From the UHGV virus genome UHGV-0122335: a stretch of DNA of 20,321 nucleotides; one strand, 5' to 3'. Shown here piece after piece: positions 1 through 13,239 of this stretch. Origin of the DNA: a virus. A model generated the notes under the pieces. It did no database searches. It was not told the DNA's origin and worked only from the letters and a program-made list of their open reading frames with translations. Made by a program: the position numbers and the translations under genes. Each line of letters starts with the position of its first letter. Within the stretch, counting starts at the first letter, position 1.

Positions 1-2034
1 AAGATGAGACAAGCCGCCAAATGTCCGGCGCGCCATCTGCCAGTTCGTGGTGGCCACATTCCTGAGGGATGGCGGGACGTTCCTGTTAGCACGAACCACT
101 ACTGCGGTATTGCTGGTTACAGAAATAATGTCGCAACGTAATTCTTTTGACACTTCATCGCCAGTATCAGGATCAGTTCCGGTATAAGGGAACTGTAGTT
201 GCGCGCCGACATCACTACTGGTGAAGTACGCACCACCAGAAACACTGATTGTATATTCCGCACGGTAATCCCATTCACCAGAACCACCAGTGATGGTCAT
301 CGTTCTGTCAGACGTATTTCTTCCATCATAGCTAAGGCCAGAATCAACAAAGAAAGCATCTTCATCGCTGGTAAATAAACGGCTGGACAGTCGCTCGATG
401 TATCTCACTGTTTGCCCGTTAACGGTTCGGTTAATGACGAAATACACCGCATCTTCATTGCCTTCGCTGATACTGCATGTGCTTTCATATTTTCCGGTAC
501 TGGACTGTGGTGCCCATGCAAAAACCTGTTGATCACGCAAATAGGTCATCACCAGTAATTTACCGTCATCACGAATGCAGAAGGCGCTGGAGTAAGGGAC
601 AATAGAGAAGCACCAGTCAACAATGCTGTGCTTCTGAAAAAGATGATTGGCAAGGATAGTAAGGTCGTTCCCCTGATAGCCGTCAACATCGAATGAGTAG
701 GCCAGATCACGGACAACACTGCCTTTCTCCTGGACGAACAGAGCAATATTCGCCACAGCAATTGGTGGGACGTTGCTTGAGCCATTTGATCCCTGAGAGC
801 TGAATGCAAATGATGATGGGGTTAACACTTTGTTCTGGTCGCCGGTGATGACGTACTCACCTCCGGAAGTCAGCGCCACCAGCGAACCAACATCAATCAG
901 GTGGCGGATCTCATTAACCTGACGCCCGGCATAGGTGTAGATAATTCTGTCGTCATCCTGCGTAGGATTGCTTTTGCCAAAATCCTTATAATCCCCGGTA
1001 CGGCTGGCCCAGATAGTCTGAGGGAACGCAGTCGATGCGGCGAAGTAAAGACGTTGTTGATAATAAACAACAGTGCCAGGATAACCATTAACACTGTTCC
1101 AGGCATATTTAGCCCATTTATAGCTGGCATTATCCTCGCCAACGACCTGCGAAGGGATATAGGAAATCACCTCGGCAGTTGCAGTAGTGCCGTTTACAGC
1201 AGTGATACGGGCAATGCCAAAACCACTGTGCAGATACTCCCACTCAATGCCAGTATCATCATCACCGGAGCCGCCCCAGCCATCCCATGATGTGCCTTCT
1301 GTATGCGAAGGGCGCAAAGTGCCTGTTTTGCCTGCTGTAACGGCGCGATAGTAATTACTGTCTGCACGGCGAATATCGCCAATCGACGTACTCTTACTGG
1401 TTTCCCATACCGGCACTGAATCCACTGCAGGCTGTTCCAGATAGAACAATTTGCCTACCTGCTCCGCGCCAAAAATAGAGGCGCTTGCCGTTAACGTAAT
1501 TGTCCCGGTGCTGGCGCTGGCATAAACCGTCACTGACTCGTCAATATTGATATCTTCAAATGGCCCGTTCTTCGTTACCACATCAACCAGTTGCCAGTTG
1601 TCATGCGCGTAGCGGCGCAACTCTTTCGGCGGGTATGCCGGGTGAACCAGCGTAAGCACGTCGGCGCTTTGCGTGAATTTAATTCGGAACAGATCGGCTT
1701 CAGTATATGGCGTGGCAATTTCATAAATAACATTGCTGCTGTTCAGCACCAACGCACCATCTTTGATAACGCGCATGTACTGGTGTCCGAACTCCAGAGC
1801 ATAGGTCTGAACCGTCGAGAACTGGAACGGGATCAGGCGGCATTTCCGATTTGGGTATTTTGCGGCACCGACAAAACGCGTACCTGGTCGATTCTCAACG
1901 CCGCCATACTGCCGCACGATCAACATAGCGCACTTGCGCAATGCCACCTGGTACTTCGCCATGTCGATACGTCCGTACAACGACGGTCCAATCTCACCAC
2001 CGGCAAAGCTGGGCTGGATCCAACTGATAGCCAT
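1..2034 (-). CDS. Large virion/tail structural protein, N-terminal 678 codons (gene continues beyond window start)
   Basis: Scanned the minus-strand frame by hand from ATG at 2034..2032 to position 1 and found no stop codons in 678 codons. Not in the ORF track because it has no stop inside the window. Its ATG overlaps the stop of the upstream 201-aa gene. Position after portal/scaffold/capsid suggests a tail protein; product is inferred from gene order only. Confidence 0.7.
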   Translation of the reverse strand, partial: MAISWIQPSFAGGEIGPSLYGRIDMAKYQVALRKCAMLIVRQYGGVENRPGTRFVGAAKYPNRKCRLIPFQFSTVQTYALEFGHQYMRVIKDGALVLNSSNVIYEIATPYTEADLFRIKFTQSADVLTLVHPAYPPKELRRYAHDNWQLVDVVTKNGPFEDINIDESVTVYASASTGTITLTASASIFGAEQVGKLFYLEQPAVDSVPVWETSKSTSIGDIRRADSNYYRAVTAGKTGTLRPSHTEGTSWDGWGGSGDDDTGIEWEYLHSGFGIARITAVNGTTATAEVISYIPSQVVGEDNASYKWAKYAWNSVNGYPGTVVYYQQRLYFAASTAFPQTIWASRTGDYKDFGKSNPTQDDDRIIYTYAGRQVNEIRHLIDVGSLVALTSGGEYVITGDQNKVLTPSSFAFSSQGSNGSSNVPPIAVANIALFVQEKGSVVRDLAYSFDVDGYQGNDLTILANHLFQKHSIVDWCFSIVPYSSAFCIRDDGKLLVMTYLRDQQVFAWAPQSSTGKYESTCSISEGNEDAVYFVINRTVNGQTVRYIERLSSRLFTSDEDAFFVDSGLSYDGRNTSDRTMTITGGSGEWDYRAEYTISVSGGAYFTSSDVGAQLQFPYTGTDPDTGDEVSKELRCDIISVTSNTAVVVRANRNVPPSLRNVATTNWQMARRTFGGLSHL

Positions 2035-2639
2035 CAGGACAACCTCGCAATGGTAAACTCGTCAACCGGTGGCTGTGGTTCCTGTGATTCATTCTGGCTA
2101 TGCGAGCCAGCACTAAGAATCACGCGATTGTACATATTGAGGGCAAACGTACCGAGGTCTGCATTCCCAGTCAGCGCCATGTTAATGGCTGCCGCAAGAC
2201 GCCAGGCCAACGCCTCCATAAAAATGGCATCAAACATGTTCACATCTGAAACGCGAGATACATACTTGAGCCATGCCTGCGGCTGGTCTGTGTAGATCAA
2301 CTTTCCTGTTCCGTTGGTGTCTGCACCAACTTCGTACTGAACGCGCATTGCTGCTGTTGGATTGCGTACACCAGGAAGCATAATTTCAGTAATGCGCAGA
2401 CAATCGGACGGGTACTGGTACGCATATTCCCAGTCAGGCGGTGGATTGCTCGTATCTGCAAGCGCCACGCGTTTGGTAGCAAAGTTCCAGTCAAAATCAG
2501 AAAGCACAGCATCACGGCAGGCCTCAAAGTGCAGCGAACATTCCCCCGCTTCCTTGCTGGCTTCCGTCAGGCTGTTAATACTGCGGCTGTTGCCAATATT
2601 GGACAGCGCACGATTGCAGATCTCTACTACAGAGGCCAT
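2034..2639 (-). CDS. Putative virion/tail adaptor protein (201 aa)
   Basis: ORF track 201 aa; ATG at 2639..2637 with AGGAG about 12 nt upstream; sits in the morphogenesis module and is coupled to the downstream large gene. Function inferred from position. Confidence 0.55.
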   Translation of the reverse strand: MASVVEICNRALSNIGNSRSINSLTEASKEAGECSLHFEACRDAVLSDFDWNFATKRVALADTSNPPPDWEYAYQYPSDCLRITEIMLPGVRNPTAAMRVQYEVGADTNGTGKLIYTDQPQAWLKYVSRVSDVNMFDAIFMEALAWRLAAAINMALTGNADLGTFALNMYNRVILSAGSHSQNESQEPQPPVDEFTIARLS

Positions 2640-2661
2640 AAGTTTCTATACTCCTGCAATA

Positions 2662-2679
2662 AAGGGGCCGAAGCCCCTT
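2662..2679 (-). other. Intergenic stem-loop (AAGGGGC-cgaa-GCCCCTT) between two virion genes
   Basis: Perfect 7-bp inverted repeat with 4-nt loop in the 56-bp gap between 2639 and 2696. No strong U-tract follows on the minus strand, so it is more likely an mRNA stability or attenuation hairpin than a full terminator. Confidence 0.3.
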
Positions 2680-2695
2680 GTCTGATTCGCGAGGC

Positions 2696-3031
2696 TTACA
2701 CGCCCAGTTCTTTACGCTTATCTGCGATCTTCTCGCGGAGCGTTTCGGCTTTGGCGTTATGGTGTGGCTTCTCGTTAAAGAGCAATTCGTACTCTTCACG
2801 GAGCTTATCCAGTTCACCATCATCTGACACATCGTTGATGATTTTGGTGCTGGTTGCTGCCATTGACACCTTTCCTGCAACTTTTGCTTTTGCCTGTCTG
2901 GCTGCATCGTTAACAGGTTCCAGTGCGCTACCAGGCTCACCTTCGTATTCGATTTCTGCCCCCTCCGGCCACAGAGTGTTATGGATATGAGAGAGGCGCA
3001 GAACGCGGTATCTTGGTTTCTCACCTGACAT
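2696..3031 (-). CDS. Hypothetical virion-module protein (111 aa from ATG 3031; track gives a GTG start at 3040)
   Basis: ORF track 2696..3040; internal ATG at 3031 is preceded by AAGGTGA; lies between capsid-region genes. Confidence 0.5.
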   Translation of the reverse strand: MSGEKPRYRVLRLSHIHNTLWPEGAEIEYEGEPGSALEPVNDAARQAKAKVAGKVSMAATSTKIINDVSDDGELDKLREEYELLFNEKPHHNAKAETLREKIADKRKELGV

Positions 3032-3041
3032 CAATATCACC

Positions 3042-3479
3042 TTAACCAGTTACTTTTGAGCGGATCGGATACGGCGTATTGGCATCAACATCAAGATTGA
3101 TACCCGCAGTGAATTTGCCAGCCGTTAGTGGGCCAGTTGCGACGGAGTAGTTAACACGCAGATATCGCTGAACACCGGCAGGCACCTTTGCAGAAACAAC
3201 TCGCTTACCTGCTGTCAGGGGGGCCTTTGCCAGTGCGCCACTATCATAAATAGTGGACCATGAGCTGTTATTCTCACTCGTCTGCAACTGGATGTTTACA
3301 GTTGCCTCACCACTTGCCGTGGCGGCTTCGTTAACCAGCACCCAAAACTCAAGCGGGTAACCCACACCGATATCGCGACGGTTTCCGTCAATTGGACCGA
3401 GATCGATTACGTCAGTAGAAGCCGCGGTATCAGTTACCGCCTGTGCTTCGGAGAACATCAACAGTTTGTCGGTGATCAT
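3042..3479 (-). CDS. Hypothetical virion protein (145 aa), possible head decoration or accessory protein
   Basis: ORF track; ATG at 3479 with GGAGA upstream; immediately downstream of the major capsid gene. Product inferred from position. Confidence 0.55.
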   Translation of the reverse strand: MITDKLLMFSEAQAVTDTAASTDVIDLGPIDGNRRDIGVGYPLEFWVLVNEAATASGEATVNIQLQTSENNSSWSTIYDSGALAKAPLTAGKRVVSAKVPAGVQRYLRVNYSVATGPLTAGKFTAGINLDVDANTPYPIRSKVTG

Positions 3480-3494
3480 CTTCTTTCTCCATTA

Positions 3495-3514
3495 GTGGGC
3501 CTGTTGCGGCCCAC
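3495..3514 (-). other. Stem-loop immediately after the major capsid gene (GTGGGCC-tgttgc-GGCCCAC)
   Basis: 7-bp perfect inverted repeat 17 nt downstream of the capsid stop codon; no U-run, so probably a stability hairpin or partial terminator. Confidence 0.3.
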
Positions 3515-3530
3515 AGGTTAATAACAGGCG

Positions 3531-4517
3531 TTACACCACGCGGGCTTCTGTTTCCAGAAGTGCGTCAGTTTCACGAATCGGCACACCACGAAGTGCTGTC
3601 CACCATTCGCCTTCTGTCTCTTTCACGCTGATCGCCAGAGAACTCTTCTCCAGAGATTGCAGGTCAAGCACTTCGTTAATGGTTCTGTTCATGTAGAAAA
3701 CAGGACGTCCCATCCCACGATTTGGGATTCGATGAAGGGCACGAATCATCAGTTTTGCGATATTCGCGGCAGTAGAAGGAGCGTCAAGATTACTGACATC
3801 AATGTTTGCGATACGAACTACATAGCGCCAGTCACGTAATGTCAGCCCGTTGTCCCACTTATAATGGGTACGATAACCTTCGTACTTGCCGCCTTTAGCA
3901 TCTTCCAGTGTCACCTGGCCTTTATCTTCCATCTGAATGCCAGCCTTCTGTCCTTTCGGGAAGATGCCATGCACGGTGTTTTCGCCCCACACCACTAACC
4001 AGATTGAAGTGTTATCTGTACCCGTGCCACCAGCATCAATGATGTTCTGAGCATTACCCGCAGACAGGCTGGAATAGCGGGAGGACAGTCCCATAAACTG
4101 CTGAGGGTTAACGCTGGAATCACCGTAAAACAGTGTCTGCGCCATCGCCTGATTCATCGCTTCAATAAATGCTCGGTCTTCAGACAGACGGAATTCGGCA
4201 GTATTACCGTTCAGATCAGCCAGAGACTTATCGACTTCAGCATAGGTTTCCAGCATGCCAATGGAATCGGTGACCTGCACTGTGGTTGATTTGCTTGGCT
4301 GTACGCCATAGTTCAGCAAACGCCAGGTAGCAGAAGGTAAACCAGAACGAATGGTGGTTCGGTGTCCGGTAGGAAGGTTTCCTTCAACAAAAGGCATATC
4401 CTGAAGAATTGGGTTAGTTTGATTGAGAAGCTCGATAATCTTATCGACTTTCCCATTTGGATCGACGCGCTTACCCCAGTCAGCCAGCGTTAGCGCAGTT
4501 AAGCCTTTAACAGACAT
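3531..4517 (-). CDS. Major capsid protein (328 aa)
   Basis: ORF track; ATG at 4517 with strong GGAGGAGA-type RBS; size and position (after portal and an acidic scaffold-like protein) are typical of a major capsid protein. No sequence match was confirmed. Confidence 0.7.
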   Translation of the reverse strand: MSVKGLTALTLADWGKRVDPNGKVDKIIELLNQTNPILQDMPFVEGNLPTGHRTTIRSGLPSATWRLLNYGVQPSKSTTVQVTDSIGMLETYAEVDKSLADLNGNTAEFRLSEDRAFIEAMNQAMAQTLFYGDSSVNPQQFMGLSSRYSSLSAGNAQNIIDAGGTGTDNTSIWLVVWGENTVHGIFPKGQKAGIQMEDKGQVTLEDAKGGKYEGYRTHYKWDNGLTLRDWRYVVRIANIDVSNLDAPSTAANIAKLMIRALHRIPNRGMGRPVFYMNRTINEVLDLQSLEKSSLAISVKETEGEWWTALRGVPIRETDALLETEARVV

Positions 4518-4531
4518 TGTTATCTCCTCTC

Positions 4532-5227
4532 TTATTTGCCATAGAGCACTTCGGCCGCACTACGCTGGCCTTCATTACCACCGGTGACCATGCCATCTTC
4601 AGACATAGCCTTTCCGATTTTCACGAACGTTTTGACCAGATCAGGGTGATTACCCAGCCCGGTGGTGTTCAGATATTCTTTGAGTTCAGGTGTCCCGAAC
4701 TGGTCAAGCGCACGCTGTGCGGCGCTAAGGTTAGAAATCAACTTGTCGCCACCGATTTCTTTGTCAGCTTTTACATCCGCAGCCCACTGCTCGGTTGTTT
4801 TCTGCCAGGCTTCTGCCTGGCGCTGCTGAACACCTGCCAGAATTTTCGGATAAGCATCAACCAGCTTTTGCGCTTGCTCGTTGGTCAGGTTAAGTTCTCG
4901 CGCCACCGGCTCGAACTCCTTCAACGCTTCTGTATCCAGCTCTACGCCTTCGGCAGCCTGAAACTCGTACTTCTCAGGCGCACCCTCTGGTTTATCGCCG
5001 TCCTTTTTTTCATCCTGCTTATCGTTTTCAGGCTTTTTGTCATCAGCAGGTTTATCGCCATCAGCAACAGGTTGTGGCTTATCACCTTCCTGTTGTGATG
5101 GATCACCAACTGGAGCAGGGTTATCACCTGCAGGCGCTGACGGTTCTGACGCAGCCGGAGCTGCTCCACCATCGACTGGTTGCTCATTGCAAAGACGGCG
5201 ATACAGCAAACGCTCAAATAAATTCAT
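4532..5227 (-). CDS. Scaffolding (capsid assembly) protein, acidic and helical (about 231 aa)
   Basis: ORF track 4532..5233; ATG at 5227 with AGGAG 5 nt upstream; highly acidic D/E/K/P-rich N-terminal half; located between portal and capsid genes. Confidence 0.55.
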   Translation of the reverse strand: MNLFERLLYRRLCNEQPVDGGAAPAASEPSAPAGDNPAPVGDPSQQEGDKPQPVADGDKPADDKKPENDKQDEKKDGDKPEGAPEKYEFQAAEGVELDTEALKEFEPVARELNLTNEQAQKLVDAYPKILAGVQQRQAEAWQKTTEQWAADVKADKEIGGDKLISNLSAAQRALDQFGTPELKEYLNTTGLGNHPDLVKTFVKIGKAMSEDGMVTGGNEGQRSAAEVLYGK

Positions 5228-5229
5228 GA

Positions 5230-5526
5230 TCACTCCTGTTCACTGGCCTCTTTGGCCATCTTCAAATACTGTTCAGGGCAATGCGCCATAACGCGCTGAA
5301 ACAGTTCCAGCGCCAGATTGCGTTGCCCCTCATTAAATGCCATTGCCATAGCGTCCATCGGTGAGATAGCGGAAAACACCCGGCCTTTCTCCAGCACAGA
5401 CCAGACAACGCGACGCCCCTGTTCACTGCTCATGACAAAGCGAATGTCATCAATTTCACGCTGTGCCATGTCACGTTGCTTACGGGCGTTTTCTTCTTTC
5501 AGTTGATCGTCTTCGTAATCTGTCAT
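5230..5526 (-). CDS. Hypothetical protein (98 aa) between portal and scaffold
   Basis: ORF track; its ATG overlaps the portal stop (ATGA), suggesting translational coupling. Confidence 0.55.
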   Translation of the reverse strand: MTDYEDDQLKEENARKQRDMAQREIDDIRFVMSSEQGRRVVWSVLEKGRVFSAISPMDAMAMAFNEGQRNLALELFQRVMAHCPEQYLKMAKEASEQE

Positions 5527-7202
5527 TGTGATTGCCCACCCTGACCACTAACTGCATTCGCCATAGCTGACAAAACACTCGGATCCGAAGTTTTAGCTTC
5601 GCTTAGCGTCTTGGCACCCTGTGCCGCCGCCATCCCCATCGCCATCATTTGTTGCTGCTGTTGTTGCTGTGCCCGTTGCTGGCGAGCCTGCTCAACCTGT
5701 TCCTGCGGAACAATGACGGTTGGAGACACTCCGGACATATCAGCGAATGCATCGATCGCCTGATCAACGTTGAGTTTGTCGAAAGCTTCTGGTTTCGCTT
5801 GCGCAAGTTGACCAATGAAGTTAACCGTGGACGCCAGACTGGACAGGCCGATAGACTTCTGCGCCTGAGCCATGACAGAAATGTATTCGACCTTCAGGGG
5901 CATACCTTCCATCGCGTCAGGCGGTGGCGGCAGCATGTTTTTACGCACCATCATCGAGAAAGCGCGGTCAATGAGAGGATTAAGACATTCGTCGTTCAGA
6001 CGCTCCAGAACCGGCCCCAACATCAGAAGCTTTTCTTCTTTCATTTCGATCACCGCTTCAACAGGCATTGAGCGGGTATTGATGTTCTGCAACATCATGA
6101 ACAGATCGACGAAGTAGGCGCTGTTAATGATTTGACGAGTGTCCTGAATGTCTGCCACCAAATCTGCTGTACTGGGGTTAACCAGATAAGCAGGCCTGAA
6201 GCCATCCTGACCAGTAATCTGATCGATATACGTGATGTCGCCAGGAAGAAGGGAGGCGCGCTGATTCTTGAGGGAAGTCGGAGCAACCATCGGCGGATTG
6301 GTGGCTTTATCAATCAACTGCGACTTGCGCTTCTGGAGAAGCTGCAATGCCTTAACAGGTCCAAGCGCCAGCATACCCGGGCATGATGATCCATAAACAT
6401 CTTCGCCGTTAACTTCCCAGCGCGGAGCCATAATTGGAAACTCATCGAATCCGGACTCGCGCAACAACTTGTCGTTATCGCCACCAACCTCGTAATAAAC
6501 CGATTTGAATGGCTTGTTCTTGCTATCCAGCTTCGATGCATCGCGGTCAATGTTCGGGTAAACCGAATGCATCACTTCAATCCACTTCTCGTAGGTGCCG
6601 CTTTCCCACATGCTTTTTACGGATTCGCTGACGTTATTTAGCCCGAACTCCTGAACAAGCTGACGAACAGTCATAGAGAACTTGCGAAAACAGGTGTCCA
6701 CACTGCCACGAGGTGAGTTAGCCAGGTAGTAACTGCCTATCGGGAATGGCATTGTGCGAATGATGTCCTCGTCATCCTCCAGCACTGCCATTGCACCAGT
6801 GCTGTATGTGCCGAGGCTTCCGTATAACTGCGGCAGAGACTGATAGAGATTCGACTTATTGAACATATCGTTCATGCGGTTCTGCACCGCCTCAAGCCAC
6901 AACTTAACAGGGCCATAATCCATCATTTCAGGATCTGGCGTAGCCAGGCGAAACCACGGACGCGCGGGGCTTGTGATGCCTGACATCATGCCGCTGGCGA
7001 GAGTGCGCGCCGCCATAGTCCCGGTCGAATCAATAATACGTGTATTGCGTCGATCGTTACGGTTGACCTCAGAAGTCAGAAAGCGGGAACCACGCGGGTT
7101 GATGTAATCACTCAACTCGCGCCAGTGCGGCTCGAACGATTGACGCTCGCTTTCAAGTTGTGCGAACTGTTTGTTCAATCGCTCTTTAGTTGTTTCCGCC
7201 AT
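5523..7202 (-). CDS. Portal (head-tail connector) protein, 559 aa, with Q/A-rich C-terminal tail
   Basis: ORF track; ATG at 7202 with GGAG RBS; size and position after terL; C-terminal poly-Q/Ala-rich tail resembles T7-type head-tail connector proteins (recollection, not a search). Confidence 0.7.
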   Translation of the reverse strand: MAETTKERLNKQFAQLESERQSFEPHWRELSDYINPRGSRFLTSEVNRNDRRNTRIIDSTGTMAARTLASGMMSGITSPARPWFRLATPDPEMMDYGPVKLWLEAVQNRMNDMFNKSNLYQSLPQLYGSLGTYSTGAMAVLEDDEDIIRTMPFPIGSYYLANSPRGSVDTCFRKFSMTVRQLVQEFGLNNVSESVKSMWESGTYEKWIEVMHSVYPNIDRDASKLDSKNKPFKSVYYEVGGDNDKLLRESGFDEFPIMAPRWEVNGEDVYGSSCPGMLALGPVKALQLLQKRKSQLIDKATNPPMVAPTSLKNQRASLLPGDITYIDQITGQDGFRPAYLVNPSTADLVADIQDTRQIINSAYFVDLFMMLQNINTRSMPVEAVIEMKEEKLLMLGPVLERLNDECLNPLIDRAFSMMVRKNMLPPPPDAMEGMPLKVEYISVMAQAQKSIGLSSLASTVNFIGQLAQAKPEAFDKLNVDQAIDAFADMSGVSPTVIVPQEQVEQARQQRAQQQQQQQMMAMGMAAAQGAKTLSEAKTSDPSVLSAMANAVSGQGGQSQ

Positions 7203-7216
7203 TTCAATGACTCCGG

Positions 7217-7423
7217 TTACTGACCAAGCAGCGTTTTACCGCTGGTATTAGCGGTTGATGTGTCGCCCTGAGAACCGGTAAGCAGCGTAGAACTACGACC
7301 AGCAGCAGCGCGACGGCGACGAGTTTCTTCGTCGCGGGCATCAACAACGGCGGCATCCTGCTCCTGTGGTGCTGCCTGAACTTCTGGTGTTGCAGGCACT
7401 GATGGTGAGCTACCCATGCACAT
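7217..7423 (-). CDS. Small acidic S/T/A-rich hypothetical protein (68 aa) upstream of portal
   Basis: ORF track; ATG at 7423 preceded by GGAGTCATTGAT; stop lies 15 nt before the portal ATG. Confidence 0.45.
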   Translation of the reverse strand: MCMGSSPSVPATPEVQAAPQEQDAAVVDARDEETRRRRAAAGRSSTLLTGSQGDTSTANTSGKTLLGQ

Positions 7424-7491
7424 ATCAATGACTCCGTACGCAATTAAATTATTACCAATTTAACCACATATGATTTATTTATCGTAGACAG

Positions 7492-7520
7492 TTGACATTT
7501 AATGCACGAATTATTACCTT
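7492..7520 (+). promoter_or_regulatory. Candidate sigma70 promoter (TTGACA at 7492-7497 with a weak -10) upstream of the tRNA island
   Basis: Consensus -35 hexamer TTGACA; the downstream -10 is poor (TATTAC/TACCTT region); overlaps the palindrome at 7514..7528. Confidence 0.3.
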
Positions 7521-7528
7521 TAAGGTAA
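7514..7528. repeat. 15-bp near-palindrome TTACCTTTAAGGTAA (copy 1 of 2)
   Basis: Seen directly; a second copy TTACCTTGAAGGTAA lies at 8138..8152; a further palindrome GGTTACTAACC lies at 7545..7555. Confidence 0.5.
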
Positions 7529-7857
7529 CCAAAGAGTTCATTCCGGTTACTAACCTGACTGGCTTGTCGTTAAATTGAACAGGTGGAGTGAGCTTTTATT
7601 TTGAGCAGTACGGCGTATGGCACATGCGACGATAGCGGTCTGGATACGTTTAAGGGGCACCCTCCCTTGCTCGGGCAAACGAACCAGGTAGCCGGAATGT
7701 GCAAGTCGAGCGGTTTTATTCCGCGCACGGGGATTCACCATCCCGGCGATTCGGTGTGACGCCTCGGAAGAGACGAGGGTACAACGATGAGAGCATTGGA
7801 TATTAGCGGGCTGTTCCACCCTACCTGATATCGAGCCAAACCAGTGCTCTCAGCGTT

Positions 7858-7934
7858 GTGGCATTAGCTCAGTTGGACAGAGCAACCGCCTTCTAAGCGG
7901 TTGGTCGCAGGTTCGAATCCTGCATGCCACGCCA
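7858..7934 (+). tRNA. tRNA-Arg (anticodon UCU, reads AGA), CCA encoded
   Basis: Hand-folded cloverleaf: acceptor GTGGCAT/ATGCCAC, D-stem GCTC/GAGC, anticodon stem ACCGC/GCGGT with loop CTTCTAA, T-arm GCAGG-TTCGAAT-CCTGC, discriminator G plus CCA. Phage-borne tRNA-Arg(UCU) is common in lambdoid and Stx-type phages. Confidence 0.9.
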
Positions 7935-7977
7935 GAATCACGCCTAAGGACCGTGATGCCAGAAGTTCCAGGGGATT

Positions 7978-8019
7978 GGCGGTGACTGTTTCCCTTGAAG
8001 GACTATCACCGCCCTTTTT
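7978..8019 (+). terminator. Putative intrinsic terminator downstream of the tRNA
   Basis: GGCGGTGA...TCACCGCC 8-bp stem (long structured loop) followed by CTTTTTTA. Confidence 0.45.
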
Positions 8020-8097
8020 ACAGCAGGACGCCATTGCGATGACTTCATGCTGTAAACCAGTACAGCCACGGAAGGCATAACTCATTGCTTCCAGTTC

Positions 8098-8121
8098 GCC
8101 CGGTTCGCCGGGCATTTTTTT
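8098..8121 (+). terminator. Intrinsic (rho-independent) terminator
   Basis: GCCCGG-ttcg-CCGGGC hairpin followed by ATTTTTTT. Confidence 0.65.
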
Positions 8122-8137
8122 GCCTGGTGACTGAACG

Positions 8138-8152
8138 TTACCTTGAAGGTAA
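8138..8152. repeat. 15-bp near-palindrome TTACCTTGAAGGTAA (copy 2), 33 nt upstream of the moron ATG
   Basis: Seen directly; overlaps a candidate promoter (GTGACT -35 at about 8127, TAAGAT -10 at 8150-8155). Confidence 0.5.
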
Positions 8153-8184
8153 GATAACAAAAACATTTAACATCTGGTTTAGAC

Positions 8185-8790
8185 ATGTTCGAGCAATTTA
8201 AAGAGATCGCATCATCGGCTATTAGCACAGCGTCAGAGAGAGTCCGCAACCCAGCACTTGGGGCATTTGTGTTTTCGTGGTGTTCTTTTAACTGGAATCC
8301 ACTATTATTTTTATTCTTCAGTAAGTCAGGAATTGAAGAAAAAATAAATTATATATCTTCCCATAGTGATGCGTACCACTCACTCTTATATCCAGCTTTA
8401 TGTGCATTCGCGCTGTGTGTAATAGTTCCATGGTTTAACAATATAGTGGTGATGTTTCAAAAAATTCCACTACAGAACATCGATAACTTCAAACACAACA
8501 AAAGCCTCAGGGATGTTAAAAACGCCATAGAATTGCGTAAGCTTGAGGCACAAAGGGACATTACATACGACAGAGTTAAGGTTGAGTTTGAGTCTGAGAT
8601 TCAATTCTATAAAAATGATTTAATCAAGCACCAAGAGTCTTTGAATTCTTTTTTGCAGGAAAGAGATTCCCTTATTGAAAAAATAATGGCGCTTGAAAAA
8701 GAACTTGCAGAAGAAAAAATAAAATCCAATACCAGAATTGCAAATAAGTTTAACTCAAGGAACAATCGCAACACAGACAATGCTGCTTAA
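8185..8790 (+). CDS. AT-rich moron: predicted membrane protein with two hydrophobic segments and a C-terminal coiled-coil (201 aa); function unknown
   Basis: ORF track; strongly AT-rich relative to flanks; opposite strand to the structural operon; hydrophobic stretches LGAFVFSWCSFNWNPLLFLFF and LLYPALCAFALCVIVPWFNNIVVMF followed by a K/E-rich heptad-like region; no obvious SD sequence. Confidence 0.6.
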   Translation: MFEQFKEIASSAISTASERVRNPALGAFVFSWCSFNWNPLLFLFFSKSGIEEKINYISSHSDAYHSLLYPALCAFALCVIVPWFNNIVVMFQKIPLQNIDNFKHNKSLRDVKNAIELRKLEAQRDITYDRVKVEFESEIQFYKNDLIKHQESLNSFLQERDSLIEKIMALEKELAEEKIKSNTRIANKFNSRNNRNTDNAA

Positions 8791-8794
8791 AACT

Positions 8795-10264
8795 TTATGA
8801 AAACGGATCGTACTCAGTAATAGCTTTCCCCTGCTGCTGCCGTGGGTCATTAGTTTTCTTGGCTACCGGGAAGGCGAACGTTAGCAGCAGCGCATCACCT
8901 TTACCCGGCGAACGCCCAAGTCGCTCTTTGATATCTTCCTTCGGTTCGATAACGATTTTACCGTCCACGCGAACTTTGTACTCTGCCGTCGACAGGTCGT
9001 CTGCTGTTTCCTGGTCATCCAGCATCCCGCCCAGCCTCAGCCATGTCTTGCATGAGTTGAACATCTCCCCACGCTTGTTGAGCATCTGCGGGTCAGTAGA
9101 CGCGCCACCGAACGGAACAAGTTGCCATGTACGACCCCAGCCGTCACCGATTGACTTCAGACCAGTTCCGTAACCGAAGTCGATGAACACTGCGTCAGCC
9201 TGGTACTGGTCTTCAAAGTCAGCGATACGCTTCGCCATTATCAGATCGTCAGTGGTCTTGTTGCCAGTCCACAGCACCTTACTGTGCAGCCCCTGCCGCA
9301 GGTATATCACAGCGTCATCAACTCCGGAGTATGCCGGGTCAACGCCGATTATCACCGGAGCATGTGCAACCTGCGCAGCGGTTACCACCCGTTTCATTGC
9401 CTCATCAGTAAGACCGGTAGGGATAAACTGCAATTCAGATGCATCAGGGAATATGCCGCGCACACGGATTTTAACGAAGTCGCTGTCTTCCCCGTAGTCA
9501 TCAACCCATTTCTGCAACTGCTGTTTGTTAGTACCTTCCACCGTCCGGCTGTCAATCTGCGCAGTTTTCCAGCGGTGTTTGTATTTGCGGAAACATTCGC
9601 GAAAACGCCCGGTATTACGTGTAGGGTTTCCGAACGCCACCCAGATAATCTCAGTGTCTTCGTCCGTAAGCGCACCCTCAGCAACTTCCCACACCAGATC
9701 CGCAATGTTCGACGCTTCATCGAATACCACGATGATGCGTTTGCGCTCGTTGTGTAGTCCGGCGAATGCCTCAGTGTTGTGCTCAGACCAGGGGATTGCG
9801 TCAGCTCGCCACCGCTTGTCGTGCCCAGGATCATTGCTGTACATCGCAGTAGCGGTACAGGTAAACCAGTCTTTCGTGATAGCAAGGTTCGACCACTTGA
9901 TAATTTCCGGCCAGGTCTTCGTTCGTAGCTGGTTGTCGGTGTTGGCGGTCACCACGACCTTACAATCCTCGCAAGTGGACATGCCCCAGTTGATCAGCAT
10001 TGAGATGAATGCGGATTTACCAATACCGTGACCAGAAGCGCGTGCCAGCATAAGCGGCTGATAGCGCGTCTCTGGATTCTGCAGGTGATCACGTATCTCT
10101 CGGAACGCATCAGCCTGCCACTGACGTGGGCCGGTAGCATGTGCCAGTTCAGTCCCCTCTTCCCCCCACGGGAACGCATAGAGGGCATAGCCAAGCGGAT
10201 CGTGAGTGAACCCTGCAATATCCTCGATCAACTGCTCTTCAGGAGATAACGCTGTATCTGTCAC
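8795..10264 (-). CDS. Terminase large subunit (489 aa)
   Basis: ORF track; GTG start at 10264 overlapping the terS stop (GTGA) with AGGATGG upstream; size and position immediately downstream of the small subunit and upstream of portal. Confidence 0.8.
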   Translation of the reverse strand: MTDTALSPEEQLIEDIAGFTHDPLGYALYAFPWGEEGTELAHATGPRQWQADAFREIRDHLQNPETRYQPLMLARASGHGIGKSAFISMLINWGMSTCEDCKVVVTANTDNQLRTKTWPEIIKWSNLAITKDWFTCTATAMYSNDPGHDKRWRADAIPWSEHNTEAFAGLHNERKRIIVVFDEASNIADLVWEVAEGALTDEDTEIIWVAFGNPTRNTGRFRECFRKYKHRWKTAQIDSRTVEGTNKQQLQKWVDDYGEDSDFVKIRVRGIFPDASELQFIPTGLTDEAMKRVVTAAQVAHAPVIIGVDPAYSGVDDAVIYLRQGLHSKVLWTGNKTTDDLIMAKRIADFEDQYQADAVFIDFGYGTGLKSIGDGWGRTWQLVPFGGASTDPQMLNKRGEMFNSCKTWLRLGGMLDDQETADDLSTAEYKVRVDGKIVIEPKEDIKERLGRSPGKGDALLLTFAFPVAKKTNDPRQQQGKAITEYDPFS

Positions 10265-10857
10265 TGATTACCATCCTGACGTTCTTTGAGTCGCTTCCTG
10301 GCTGCCGCTATGCGATCAGCAATTGTCACATTCACATTAACATCCAGGCGTTCTTTGAATGCATTGACGTCGACGTGCTTACCAATCAGTTCGAGGTTCT
10401 TCACCTTGTCAGGCCATTTAATTTTTTTGAGAATTGTCTCTATCGAATCCTCGTTCATGTTCATGATGGTCGATGACAGATCAAAGCCACTAAGCGTAGT
10501 GCGCCAGATTTTCGGCCACTCGCGGATTGGCTTAAGGCTCCCATCGTCATTGAGGATATCAATCACGTCCATCTGGTCGATCTCCACCAGGCGCATGAGA
10601 ACGTAATCGGCACTGACGCGCATTCGTTTGTTGCGCTCCTCCATCAACTCGGCAATCCGTTTTTGAATGCGTTCATCGCGCATCATGACACTGGCTTTAA
10701 CTGCCGCTGTATTTGGGGAGAATCCTGCGTTAATCGCTGCCTGAGTCTGGTTTTCAGGCGTTTTGATGTATGACTGGCAATAAGCCTCCTGCATTGCGGT
10801 TAGTGGCTTAAATTGCGTTGATTTGCGTTTATAGGTTTTAGGTTCAGCAGGCATCAT
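10261..10857 (-). CDS. Terminase small subunit (start uncertain: 10857, 10854 or upstream to 10935)
   Basis: ORF track 10261..10935; ATG-ATG at 10857/10854 preceded by GGTGG; basic helical protein directly upstream of and coupled to terL. Confidence 0.6.
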   Translation of the reverse strand: MMPAEPKTYKRKSTQFKPLTAMQEAYCQSYIKTPENQTQAAINAGFSPNTAAVKASVMMRDERIQKRIAELMEERNKRMRVSADYVLMRLVEIDQMDVIDILNDDGSLKPIREWPKIWRTTLSGFDLSSTIMNMNEDSIETILKKIKWPDKVKNLELIGKHVDVNAFKERLDVNVNVTIADRIAAARKRLKERQDGNQ

Positions 10858-10900
10858 AACCACCATGGTAATTGTTACCGTTGTGGTAATAGTACCATGC

Positions 10901-10926
10901 AAAATAAAGCCGCCATAGTTGGCGGC
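10901..10926 (-). terminator. Intrinsic terminator on the minus strand just upstream of terS
   Basis: GCCGCCA-acta-TGGCGGC hairpin followed by UUUAUUUU in the minus-strand transcript. Confidence 0.5.
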
Positions 10927-11010
10927 AGTATTCAAAACCCATCAAATTCATCATGCATAATCTACTCGTGACATGTCACACTATTAATTTCGTTTCATGC
11001 CAGCCTTTAG

Positions 11011-11322
11011 TCACCCAGCATTGCGAGTCACCATTACACGGGCATGAATTAACGGGAACTCTCTCGCCGCACTTACCGCAAAGTTTCTGCTGATCGATTT
11101 TATACGCCCGCGCACACGTGCATCATCCTGGCGGATCAGCAGCGCGATGTACTCGGCCATTTCATAGGGATCGCGACCAGGGCGCCGGGCGGCGCAGTTC
11201 CGCGCCAGCATTTCCTGCTCCTGCTTATCCAGCACCAGTTCAATTTTGCGCTCACCGGCGGCGGACTGCCGAGCGCGCTGCGCGGCTTTGCGTTCTGCGG
11301 GGGATTTAGCCACGAATCGCAC
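11011..11322 (-). CDS. Hypothetical Arg-rich protein (103 aa by track, GTG start with poor RBS)
   Basis: ORF track only; no convincing RBS; lies in the junction region between the early-left genes and terS. Confidence 0.3.
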   Translation of the reverse strand: MRFVAKSPAERKAAQRARQSAAGERKIELVLDKQEQEMLARNCAARRPGRDPYEMAEYIALLIRQDDARVRGRIKSISRNFAVSAAREFPLIHARVMVTRNAG

Positions 11323-11428
11323 TCCACGCCAGATTGATTAATGACTCCCAGGTAATATAAACCCGGATACCAGCAACCAGGCCGAAACCAATCACCATGG
11401 CATAAAGCAGAGCGTTGCACTTGTTCAT
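11306..11428 (-). CDS. Small hydrophobic protein (40 aa), likely membrane peptide
   Basis: Hand-translated (MNKCNALLYAMVIGFGLVAGIRVYITWESLINLAWSAIRG); GGAGG RBS; its ATG overlaps the stop of the upstream DUF551-like gene (TGATG). Below the ORF-track length cutoff. Confidence 0.4.
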   Translation of the reverse strand: MNKCNALLYAMVIGFGLVAGIRVYITWESLINLAWSAIRG

Positions 11429-12195
11429 CACTTCACCTCCTGCGGCGGTTCTGGTAGCGGCATCCAGTGGGTTACTTTCGATGCCGGTTCTTCCCCATCG
11501 TCAGTAACTGCCCACCATTTGTTTCTCGACCAATCGTAATACCCTTCGAAGGTATCGCACTCAGTCCAGCCGTAAGACTTACCCCAACACCAAACATACT
11601 GTTTATCGTTCGGCATTCGCTCACTACAGCTTATCCAACCATCCGGAGTTGCCGGAGTTGGTCCATCGAATTCGGGCATGTCAGGACCTTTTCTGATAGC
11701 TTTAGCCAGCTCCAGCGGGTCATCGTAAAGCCAGTCGCCAGTTTGTGGGTGATTTGCTTCTGCAAGCTGCGCAGCCCATTCAAGACCATCTTTTTGACCT
11801 TGGAGATAATCAAGCGGCAACTCTTCATGATTACTTGCAGGTTCGGCACTATGAAGCATGGCAGCGCGGCAGGCGTTCCAGCCTCTTACCCCTGCAATAG
11901 CGGCAACCGCATCAACCGCGTACATGCTAAGAGGATTAGGAATTGGTTTTTCTTCCGGTACTACTGGCGCTGGAGGGGTGGCGTAGAGTGGAACTCCTCC
12001 CCCTCCACCAGAAAATTCATTGCGAGCGTTATACTCACGACCATCTGCGTCATCACGCATCCACGCCACCGGCTCTGCTTCCAGCGATGCCAGAGCAATT
12101 TCATAAGCACGGCGCTCAATATTGTCTCGCACGTCCAGGCTGCCGATTCGCTCTTTGATTTCTTTAATCAGTTCTTTGTCGGTAAAAGTGGTCAT
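11428..12195 (-). CDS. DUF551-like prophage protein (255 aa; Trp-rich C-terminal domain)
   Basis: ORF track; ATG at 12195 with AAGGAGAG RBS; C-terminal W-rich region (GWISCSERMPNDKQYVWCWGKSYGW...THWMPLPEPP) resembles the DUF551 domain common in lambdoid prophages (recollection). Confidence 0.6.
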   Translation of the reverse strand: MTTFTDKELIKEIKERIGSLDVRDNIERRAYEIALASLEAEPVAWMRDDADGREYNARNEFSGGGGGVPLYATPPAPVVPEEKPIPNPLSMYAVDAVAAIAGVRGWNACRAAMLHSAEPASNHEELPLDYLQGQKDGLEWAAQLAEANHPQTGDWLYDDPLELAKAIRKGPDMPEFDGPTPATPDGWISCSERMPNDKQYVWCWGKSYGWTECDTFEGYYDWSRNKWWAVTDDGEEPASKVTHWMPLPEPPQEVK

Positions 12196-12196
12196 G

Positions 12197-13015
12197 TCAC
12201 TCTCCTTTGATGCGAATGCCAGCGTCAGACATCATATGCAGATACTCAACTGCATCCTGAACCCATTGACCGCCAATCCCGTAATAGCGATGCGTAATGA
12301 TGTCGATAGTTACTAACGGGTCTTGTTCGATTAACTTCCGCAGAAACTCTTCCAGGTCACCAGTGCAGTGCTTGATGACAGGAGTTTTCCCAGGATGGCG
12401 AACAACAAGAAACTGATTTCCGACTTCACGGACTTCGTTGCTTTTCAGTTCTGCAATGCGCTTCTCTGAGGCTTCCAGCTTCTCTCGCATATCGTCAACG
12501 TACTCGACCAGAGAACCGCCAGCAGGAATTTCGCACTCCTCGACCAGTTGGAAGTAGATATCAGCTGCGGCCCGTGTGTTGCTATGCCTAGCGTCGCCCA
12601 TCTCACCTTCACGAAGAGCATCGCGTTCGGCGGTAAGATTGGCTATTTTGCTGTCTTTGCCTTCCAGCTCAACGCGCAGCTTCCCTACCGTTAGCGCAAT
12701 ATCCTCGTTCTCCTGGTCGCGGCGTTTGATGTATTGCTGGTTTCTTTCCCGTTCATCCAGTAATGCCAAGACGGTAGCCGGATTAGCTGCGGCGATGAAT
12801 TCAGCATTGGCCTGCTGTTCCATTTGGAAATCTTCATCGAAACCGCTTTCTGGATGCGCTCCTTCAATTCTGCAAATAGGAATATATCCAGCAACTTCAC
12901 GATGAATTAGCGCATCATCACCATCAAATCGGCTCTCTCCATATTCGAGCGACCATACACCACACGTTGCTTTTTCTGCCTTGGCACGCAGTGCCTGATA
13001 GTCAATCTTGCTCAC
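12197..13015 (-). CDS. Ead/Ea22-like protein (272 aa)
   Basis: ORF track; GTG start at 13015 with AGGAGG 6 nt upstream; central coiled-coil; typical early-left accessory protein of lambdoid phages (family assignment from recollection). Confidence 0.55.
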   Translation of the reverse strand: MSKIDYQALRAKAEKATCGVWSLEYGESRFDGDDALIHREVAGYIPICRIEGAHPESGFDEDFQMEQQANAEFIAAANPATVLALLDERERNQQYIKRRDQENEDIALTVGKLRVELEGKDSKIANLTAERDALREGEMGDARHSNTRAAADIYFQLVEECEIPAGGSLVEYVDDMREKLEASEKRIAELKSNEVREVGNQFLVVRHPGKTPVIKHCTGDLEEFLRKLIEQDPLVTIDIITHRYYGIGGQWVQDAVEYLHMMSDAGIRIKGE

Positions 13016-13089
13016 TGGTTGCCTCCTGCTTTTCTGCCTTCAACACCATGCGAGAACCATCATCCAGCTCCCACGCGATCTCACCACCT

Positions 13090-13239
13090 TCAGCCATGAC
13101 CAGTCGCCTCATTGGTAACATCACGACCTGGATCATTGCCAACGCGCATACGTCCACCTTCAACATCGCGCATTTTTGCCAGCATGATAGTTTTTGATAG
13201 CGGTGAAAAACCAAGCTGTAGTCGTGCTGAATTACTCAC
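13090..13239 (-). CDS. Small hypothetical protein (49 aa, GTG start)
   Basis: Hand-translated; same start context as Ea22 (17-nt repeat CTCACTGGTTGCCTCCT giving AGGAGG, a GTG start and an overlapping upstream TGA). Overlaps the track ORF 13002..13214 in another frame, so only one of the two may be real. Confidence 0.3.

Follow-up and report, generated by a model that had tools for sequence, protein, structure and literature searches.

Candidate Rep operators at a probable terS promoter of an epsilon15-like phage genome

The nested inverted repeats at the 5' end of the small terminase gene (terS) in virus genome UHGV-0122335 resolve into two tandem 17-bp palindromes of the form ATTACC-N5-GGTAAT, read on the minus strand and referred to here as O1 and O2. 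We consider it probable (about 0.72), judging from comparative sequence data, that O1 and O2 are adjacent operators for a repressor of the epsilon15/SPC32H Rep type, and possibly for a Cro-like partner too. A repressor operator of this kind, on a probable promoter, is already known, the operator being annotated in epsilon15. The observations concern the identity of the motif, its positional homology to annotated sites, its distribution over whole genomes, its co-occurrence with rep, and the pattern of conservation in half-sites, spacer and -10 element; from these we infer the binding of Rep at O1 and O2, the transcription start and repression. Repeats at the start of a terminase gene are not automatically packaging signals, and it is probable that epsilon15-like phages use the prophage repressor to silence the packaging and structural operon directly, at the operon's own promoter. 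This is useful for annotating and engineering these common prophages of E. coli and Salmonella.

Gene order and the start of terS

The window analyzed here is the whole stretch of 20,321 nucleotides. Its minus strand carries the packaging and head genes of a podophage resembling epsilon15 and phiV10 (genus Uetakevirus), and terS and all late genes are read from that strand. The terS gene (10261-10854, minus strand) encodes a 197-aa protein of the Terminase_2 family (Pfam PF03592, E 1.4e-29; phrog_51); the large terminase gene, terL, lies at 8795-10264 and the portal gene at 5523-7202, both on the minus strand. A terS CDS of the same 594 nt is annotated in EC.W1-9, TL-2011b and Tyrion, and the epsilon15 annotation ties its TerS to the SF6 TerS structure. 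Over the 401 bp that surround the terS leader, the window has 100% identity with Escherichia phage EC.W1-9 and 97-99% with TL-2011b, phiV10 and others. The gene upstream of terS encodes a small 'transcriptional regulator' (phrog_536), a homologue of epsilon15 gp49. Along the direction of transcription on the minus strand, the order is thus 12-bp palindrome, terminator, repeats and terS.

On the evidence of alignment, the true start of terS is the ATG at 10854 (MPAEPK...), which is kept in epsilon15, Tyrion and TL-2011b. A Shine-Dalgarno sequence, GGTGG (10860..10864, minus strand), can be read 5 nt before this ATG; it is kept in relatives, and Tyrion has an annotated RBS at the equivalent place. 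Two other candidates were rejected: the TTG at 10935, where the long open reading frame (ORF) begins, because the reading would cross the terminator, and the in-frame ATG at 10866, because this codon is ACG in TL-2011b and phiV10. With the start codon fixed in this way, the suggestion of the initial annotation that the repeats at the terS start form a control element is retained, whereas the start itself is to be set at the ATG named above, on the minus strand. It also means that the annotations of phiV10 and SPN1S have the wrong start. In phiV10 (NC_007804.2, 41..715), terS is annotated from the long-ORF start with 224 aa, and in SPN1S (NC_016761.1, 1..669) likewise with 222 aa; both of these long readings run through the terminator and the operators, and the conserved start gives 197-198 aa.

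The terminator scan found a Rho-independent terminator upstream of terS (10899..10926, minus strand), composed of GCCGCCaactatGGCGGC and TTTATTTT. Its GC-rich hairpin occupies 10926-10909 on the minus strand and is followed by the U-run TTTATTTT. An equivalent hairpin is annotated as a terminator in epsilon15 and is conserved in relatives, and some other relatives have different terminators at that position. The terminator ends the upstream operon. A hairpin at 10901..10926 had earlier been described as a terminator following the repeats; it is indeed an intrinsic terminator, but it belongs to the minus strand and precedes terS instead of following it.

Two adjacent palindromes of a dispersed motif

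Nested GGTAA/TTACC repeats are present at 10863-10899, as the initial annotation had reported. The outer repeat is a perfect 7-bp inverted repeat, CATGGTA (10864-10870) and TACCATG (10893-10899), inside which lie GGTAAttgTTACC (10867-10879) and TTACCgttgtGGTAA (10875-10889). What these repeats resolve into is the inner inverted repeat O1 (ATTACCacaacGGTAAC, 10874..10890, minus strand) and a second, weaker palindrome O2 (ATTACCatggtGGTTAT, 10856..10872, minus strand), each with 1 mismatch to the motif. The minus strand reads TGgTACT-ATTACCacaacGGTAAC-a-ATTACCatggtGGTTAT-g-ATG, so that O1 and O2 are spaced 18 bp from centre to centre and O2 extends over the Shine-Dalgarno sequence as far as the terS start codon. 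The repeats appear nested because the four half-sites of the two adjacent palindromes alternate left, right, left, right. The outer 7-bp repeat (10864..10899) arises incidentally, from the -10 region together with the left half of O2. Only the window and a few close relatives (EC.W1-9 and locus L064) have it, and in most others it is imperfect or absent; in TL-2011b, phiV10 and most E. coli relatives, for example, its 3' arm reads TACCACG.

The motif is strongly enriched in the window. TTACC-N(0-12)-GGTAA occurs three times (7514, 8138 and 10875), in all cases with N5, against 0.08 expected, and GGTAA-N(0-12)-TTACC occurs once against 0.05 expected. When the full motif is searched, three sites have at most 1 mismatch (0.045 expected) and four have at most 2 (0.8 expected). 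The earlier remark that the half-sites at terS are the same as those of palindromes near the tRNA gene therefore holds: they form one motif family, ATTACC-N5-GGTAAT, with counts far above expectation.

Two of these sites lie away from terS. Site A (7513..7529), where the plus strand carries the motif as ATTACCtttaaGGTAAC, is the homologue of epsilon15 repressor site 2931..2947; it overlaps a promoter-like sequence on the plus strand, TAGACA-18-AATTAT (7485-7514), which points toward the tRNA-Arg gene, and the overlap has the same register as at pL. Site B (8137..8153), GTTACCttgaaGGTAAG, matches the motif with 2 mismatches and lies between a plus-strand terminator (8098-8113) and a plus-strand gene (8185-8790).

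The surroundings of sites A and B offer some further observations. The gene for tRNA-Arg(TCT) (7858-7934) is on the strand opposite to the late genes and appears to be a transcription unit of its own, with the promoter-like site at 7485-7514 and the terminator at 8098-8113. A CDS annotated in EC.W1-9, corresponding to window positions 7864-8115 (minus strand), overlaps the tRNA in antisense and is doubtful. Between terL and the portal region, positions 8128-8790 (plus strand) hold an opposite-strand accessory gene of 201 aa (phrog_4780), and site B falls in the spacer of a possible promoter, GTGACT-17-TAAGAT.

In epsilon15, the RefSeq record (NC_004775.2) lists seven sites as 'protein_bind: repressor', all of which fit ATTACC-N5-GGTAAT. 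One of them, 12..27, is located directly upstream of terS, right after an annotated terminator. Another is found before gp3 (before the portal) and another before the tailspike; three adjoin the repressor gene, and one belongs to the early-right operon. O1 aligns to site 12..27, between the equivalent terminator and terS, and is its positional homologue; site A aligns to the one before gp3. A mismatch-tolerant scan of epsilon15 yields further motif sites in the rep-cro intergenic region. With at most 1 mismatch allowed, 11 sites are found in EC.W1-9 (0.045 expected per 20 kb), all of them intergenic, 3 of which flank its repressor gene. Epsilon15-like phages carry more than 10 copies of the motif per genome, always in intergenic positions and clustered around rep. 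Database annotation and genomic distribution together suggest that these are repressor sites. Epsilon15 Rep matches PDB 5D50, the Rep of SPC32H (E 8e-128), and SPC32H Rep is described in a secondary source as binding palindromic sites as a tetramer (PMC9638917).

The epsilon15/SPC32H system (NC_004775.2; PDB 5D50/5D4Z) and the window have the 17-bp palindrome ATTACC-N5-GGTAAT in common. The likeness to epsilon15 extends to the site upstream of terS, the companion site before the portal-proximal gene and the terminator just upstream. The window differs in that its immunity region is lambdoid, that no Rep is encoded in it, and that O1 and O2 have 1 mismatch each.

The co-occurrence of motif and repressor was followed in 10 enterobacterial prophages retrieved via terS (from Citrobacter, Klebsiella, Erwinia, Scandinavium, Buttiauxella, Samsonia and others). 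A Rep homologue with 36-99% identity to epsilon15 gp38 is present in all nine that have enough upstream DNA, and these rep genes are located 6-8 kb upstream, flanked by motif clusters. EC.W1-9 and TL-2011b likewise have a Rep homologue flanked by motif clusters. O1 precedes the terS ATG by 36-38 nt in nine of these ten prophages; the exception is Samsonia, whose motif site is further upstream, ahead of a -10-like TGgTATGAT. Neither a motif site nor Rep was found in a Novosphingobium relative. In Citrobacter phage Omnitron, a homologue of gp49 (85% identity) is present and Rep is not, and no motif site occurs in its 41.9 kb. Since the motif is present in the Rep-bearing prophages and absent from Omnitron, it appears to track Rep and not gp49, which is a correlation and not proof, all motif-positive genomes being related and thus not phylogenetically independent.

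The window itself is composite. Epsilon15-like E. coli prophages match positions 1-13014 with 99.8% identity, whereas the stretch from about 11.6 to 20.3 kb is lambdoid and matches pL operons of the P22/Sf6/HK633 type; the two parts overlap in a shared ead/Ea22-DUF551 stretch (junction 11400-13100). The right part contains a pL operon on the minus strand, cI-N-erf-ssb-abc2-ead, which reads straight into the gp49-like gene and terS. The window is either a natural hybrid, in which case the operators would be orphans, or an assembly chimera. One reading of O1 and O2 is accordingly that they are relic sites, inherited but idle, with the cognate immunity region replaced by lambdoid cI/N/pL, or that the situation reflects a chimera. 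Besides the two-part structure, it is favored by the fact that neither Rep nor a gp39-type Cro is encoded within the 20-kb window and that 80% of the window is not contained in any complete E. coli genome. We regard this reading as possible but doubtful: a rep gene could lie beyond the 20 kb in view, and the DNA is identical to that of the functional phage EC.W1-9, so the element itself is intact.

A probable terS promoter and other readings of the leader

An extended -10-like element, TGgTACTAT (10889..10897, minus strand), adjoins O1 in such a way that its last two bases are the first two of O1. In 30 aligned distinct leaders, the TG, T1, A2, A5 and T6 of TGnTAnnAT are invariant, and the -10 hexamer varies only at positions 3 and 4 (TACTAT, TAGTAT, TATTAT, TACAAT and TACCAT). 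TGnTAnnAT is also retained in three unrelated upstream contexts. This pattern is as expected for an extended -10 sigma-70 promoter, and a promoter at this position is probable. The register of -10 element and operator equals that at pL of EC.W1-9 and epsilon15 (TTGACA-17-NNNNAT, with TACC following directly), where there is a perfect TTGACA -35 at 17 bp; no -35 element was found at the terS promoter.

A transcription start is predicted near 10882. Counted from there, O1 would extend from about -8 to +9 and O2 from about +11 to +27, and the ATG would be at about +29. In the model that we propose, the early operon would end with the gp49-like gene and the terminator, and the extended -10 promoter TGgTACTAT would come directly after. 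A Rep tetramer on both palindromes would block RNA polymerase at the terS promoter, that is, by promoter occlusion. The packaging and structural operon would thereby stay silent in the lysogen and be freed once Rep is removed. Repression of the promoter by Rep only does not by itself explain late timing.

Repressor sites that are dispersed over the genome are known from phage P1 (the C1 operators) and mycobacteriophage L5 (the gp71 stoperators). The likeness lies in the many scattered sites for one prophage repressor, including sites before late or structural genes, beyond the immunity region. The sites described here differ in being symmetric palindromes placed on promoters (-10/+1), about 11-18 per genome, and not asymmetric, orientation-dependent elongation blocks. 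Another likeness is to the Q - pR' - tR' region of lambda, where, too, a small regulator gene closes the early genes, and a terminator and the late operon come next. Unlike at the lambda Q junction, the conserved promoter here is downstream of the terminator and has repressor operators, and the lysis genes, in contrast to lambda, occupy the distal end of the operon. Neither a homologue of Q nor an arrangement resembling qut was found.

How the leader is conserved was examined in 77 loci, which represent 43 distinct terS leaders. The half-sites of O1 are unchanged throughout, barring two single-base exceptions, and its 5-bp spacer takes 11 forms among the 43 leaders. Half-sites that stay fixed around a free spacer are the mark of a protein-binding site. 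In O2, the left half, ATTACY, is kept in relatives even where the gap between O1 and O2 goes from 1 to 3 nt, and O2 is degenerate in a few lineages. Comparison with the terS-proximal regions of related phages, which the initial annotation had suggested, thus shows conservation for the half-sites of O1 but not for the outer repeat, which most relatives have in imperfect form or not at all.

The same leader can be read as a device for RNA-level translational control of terS in transcripts that pass the terminator, which would be compatible with an operator function. Pairing of the left half of O1 with the Shine-Dalgarno sequence and the right half of O2 would hide the terS start, and translation would be possible only from mRNAs begun at the local promoter. 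In the window, the read-through leader folds at -20.7 kcal/mol (z -3.4) and occludes the Shine-Dalgarno sequence and both ATGs, and a leader begun at the predicted start site shows no structure (z 0.02). In many relatives, too, the minimum-energy structure is this nested fold, and changes in the left half of O2 from C to T and from A to G preserve G-U pairs. However, in 30 distinct sequences the covariation is no better than in shuffled controls, in either the nested or the outer-stem model. The outer stem has pairs in only 71% of cells, with several columns lacking them in 16-20 of the 30 sequences, and spacer positions that lengthen the helix vary without compensation. Pairing potential follows automatically from two adjacent DNA palindromes, and no Rfam family matches the terS leader, the tRNA being the sole hit in the window. 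The translational control element that had been offered as one possibility is decidedly unlikely, given covariation that does not exceed shuffles and an outer stem that is unpaired in most relatives.

A separate candidate in this region, an rseX sRNA over 10902-10987 (minus strand), was rejected; it scores 27.8 bits against a gathering threshold of 50 and consists mostly of the terminator and AU-rich sequence.

The other function that had been proposed for the repeats is packaging recognition (pac or cos-proximal). As a pac site, they would let TerS bind at the beginning of its own gene and initiate headful packaging, as in SPP1. In the SPP1 pacL/pacR paradigm, the sites of a Terminase_2-type TerS are at the terS 5' end; the position of the repeats fits this, and TerS here belongs to PF03592. 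Epsilon15 DNA was reportedly found by McConnell in 1992 to be circularly permuted, which would require a pac site somewhere. O1 is always found with this terS, and so is rep. A packaging signal would be expected to occur once and to evolve together with terS. The motif is not unique, with 4 copies in the window and at least 11 in EC.W1-9; it is found in all regulatory intergenic regions, those around rep included, and at the early promoter pL it overlaps the -10 in the same register. The 12-bp palindrome, for its part, follows gp49 and not terS, is joined to unrelated downstream modules and is up to 2.4 kb away from terS.

The likeness to SPP1 pac (pacL-pacC-pacR) therefore consists of repeats at the 5' end of a Terminase_2-family terS, whereas the motif here is repeated genome-wide, co-occurs with rep and overlaps promoters. 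No virion-end mapping data for the genus Uetakevirus were found in a literature search. With a motif that recurs throughout the genome, an epsilon15 homologue annotated as repressor-binding and a palindrome that goes with gp49, we consider a pac function of these repeats very improbable. They do not indicate pac, which may lie nearby or inside terS.

The 12-bp palindrome and the gp49-like gene

The perfect 12-bp palindrome GTGACATGTCAC that had been noticed near the repeats is confirmed at 10968..10979. The window has 1 perfect 12-bp palindrome, against 4.9 in shuffles. By chance alone the palindrome is thus unremarkable, and its significance comes only from conservation elsewhere. In intact relatives, GTGACATGTCAC supplies the TGA stop of the gp49-like gene. 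It is found at the end of this gene in about 78 of 80 IMG/VR loci, which include 20 without this terS within reach (a few of them end just past the gene), and Omnitron too has it at the end of its gp49-like gene. The GTGAC/GTCAC half-sites are invariant, and it is the two bases between them that vary. Three exact copies of GTGACATGTCAC are present in epsilon15 (2142, 19517 and 39612; about 0.002 expected), at the ends of gp49, terL and gp18, and each copy adjoins a cassette that is variable or on the opposite strand. In most prophages a second copy follows terL (in L015-L021 at about +2100 from the terS start). Similarity between genomes ends right after the palindrome, where at least 8 different sequences follow: terminators of four kinds, inserted genes with LexA-box promoters, and open reading frames.

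The palindrome is separate from the O1/O2 switch and is tied to the gp49-like gene. Our guess is that it is either a site for the gp49-like protein or a recombination junction. The more specific proposal that GTGAC-NN-GTCAC is the DNA site of the gp49-like protein and a boundary element at the ends of transcription units is, in our estimate, unlikely. If it were true, the palindrome would mark the exact junctions of accessory cassette exchange, and it might also govern how far the early operon is insulated from the late genes or reads through into them.

Two other identities were considered for the palindrome and rejected. E. coli matS (GTGACRNYGTCAC, bound by MatP) has half-sites GTGAC and GTCAC identical to those of the palindrome. 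The spacing does not agree, as the palindrome has 12 bp with a 2-nt centre and matS has 13 bp in the form GTGAC-RNY-GTCAC; the palindrome here is, in addition, tied to the phage gp49 gene. A candidate sigma-70 promoter that uses GTGACA of the palindrome as its -35 is found in the window but is not general, given at least 8 downstream contexts. In some relatives such a promoter is positionally possible, with an RNA of only 30-40 nt, and it is a minor possibility.

The gp49-like gene (10976..11313, minus strand; phrog_536, E 1.6e-31) has a 1-nt deletion near 11083 (GAAACTTTGCGG versus GAAAACGTTGCGG), which is seen against TL-2011b and phiV10. The deletion shifts the frame before the Cys-rich C-terminus (CGKCGERVPVNSCPCNGDSQCW...), and the tblastn match splits into two frames. 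The viable phage EC.W1-9 has the same deletion variant, and the 100-aa form of the protein makes up its own protein clusters, with 79-99% identity; it is therefore a recurrent variant, not just a sequencing error. The gp49-like protein has no Pfam, NCBIfam or PDB match, and all of its database homologues are 'hypothetical'. Its AF2 model is poor (pLDDT 59, pTM 0.34). The protein possibly has a ribbon-helix-helix N-terminus, together with the Cys-rich C-terminus.

In many relatives (L015, L016, L017, L005 and many IMG/VR loci), a LexA-box cassette is located between the palindrome and the terS promoter. The cassettes contain a LexA-box promoter, TACTGT-N8-ACAGTA, and a small gene. One type of cassette gene begins with MGFPSPAADY and looks UmuD-like; the cassette genes after the palindrome gave no Pfam hit. 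Omnitron (L107) has two more copies of GTGAC-NN-GTCAC, at 23734 and 37762, both inside long ORFs, which brings its total to 3 in 42 kb against about 0.04 expected.
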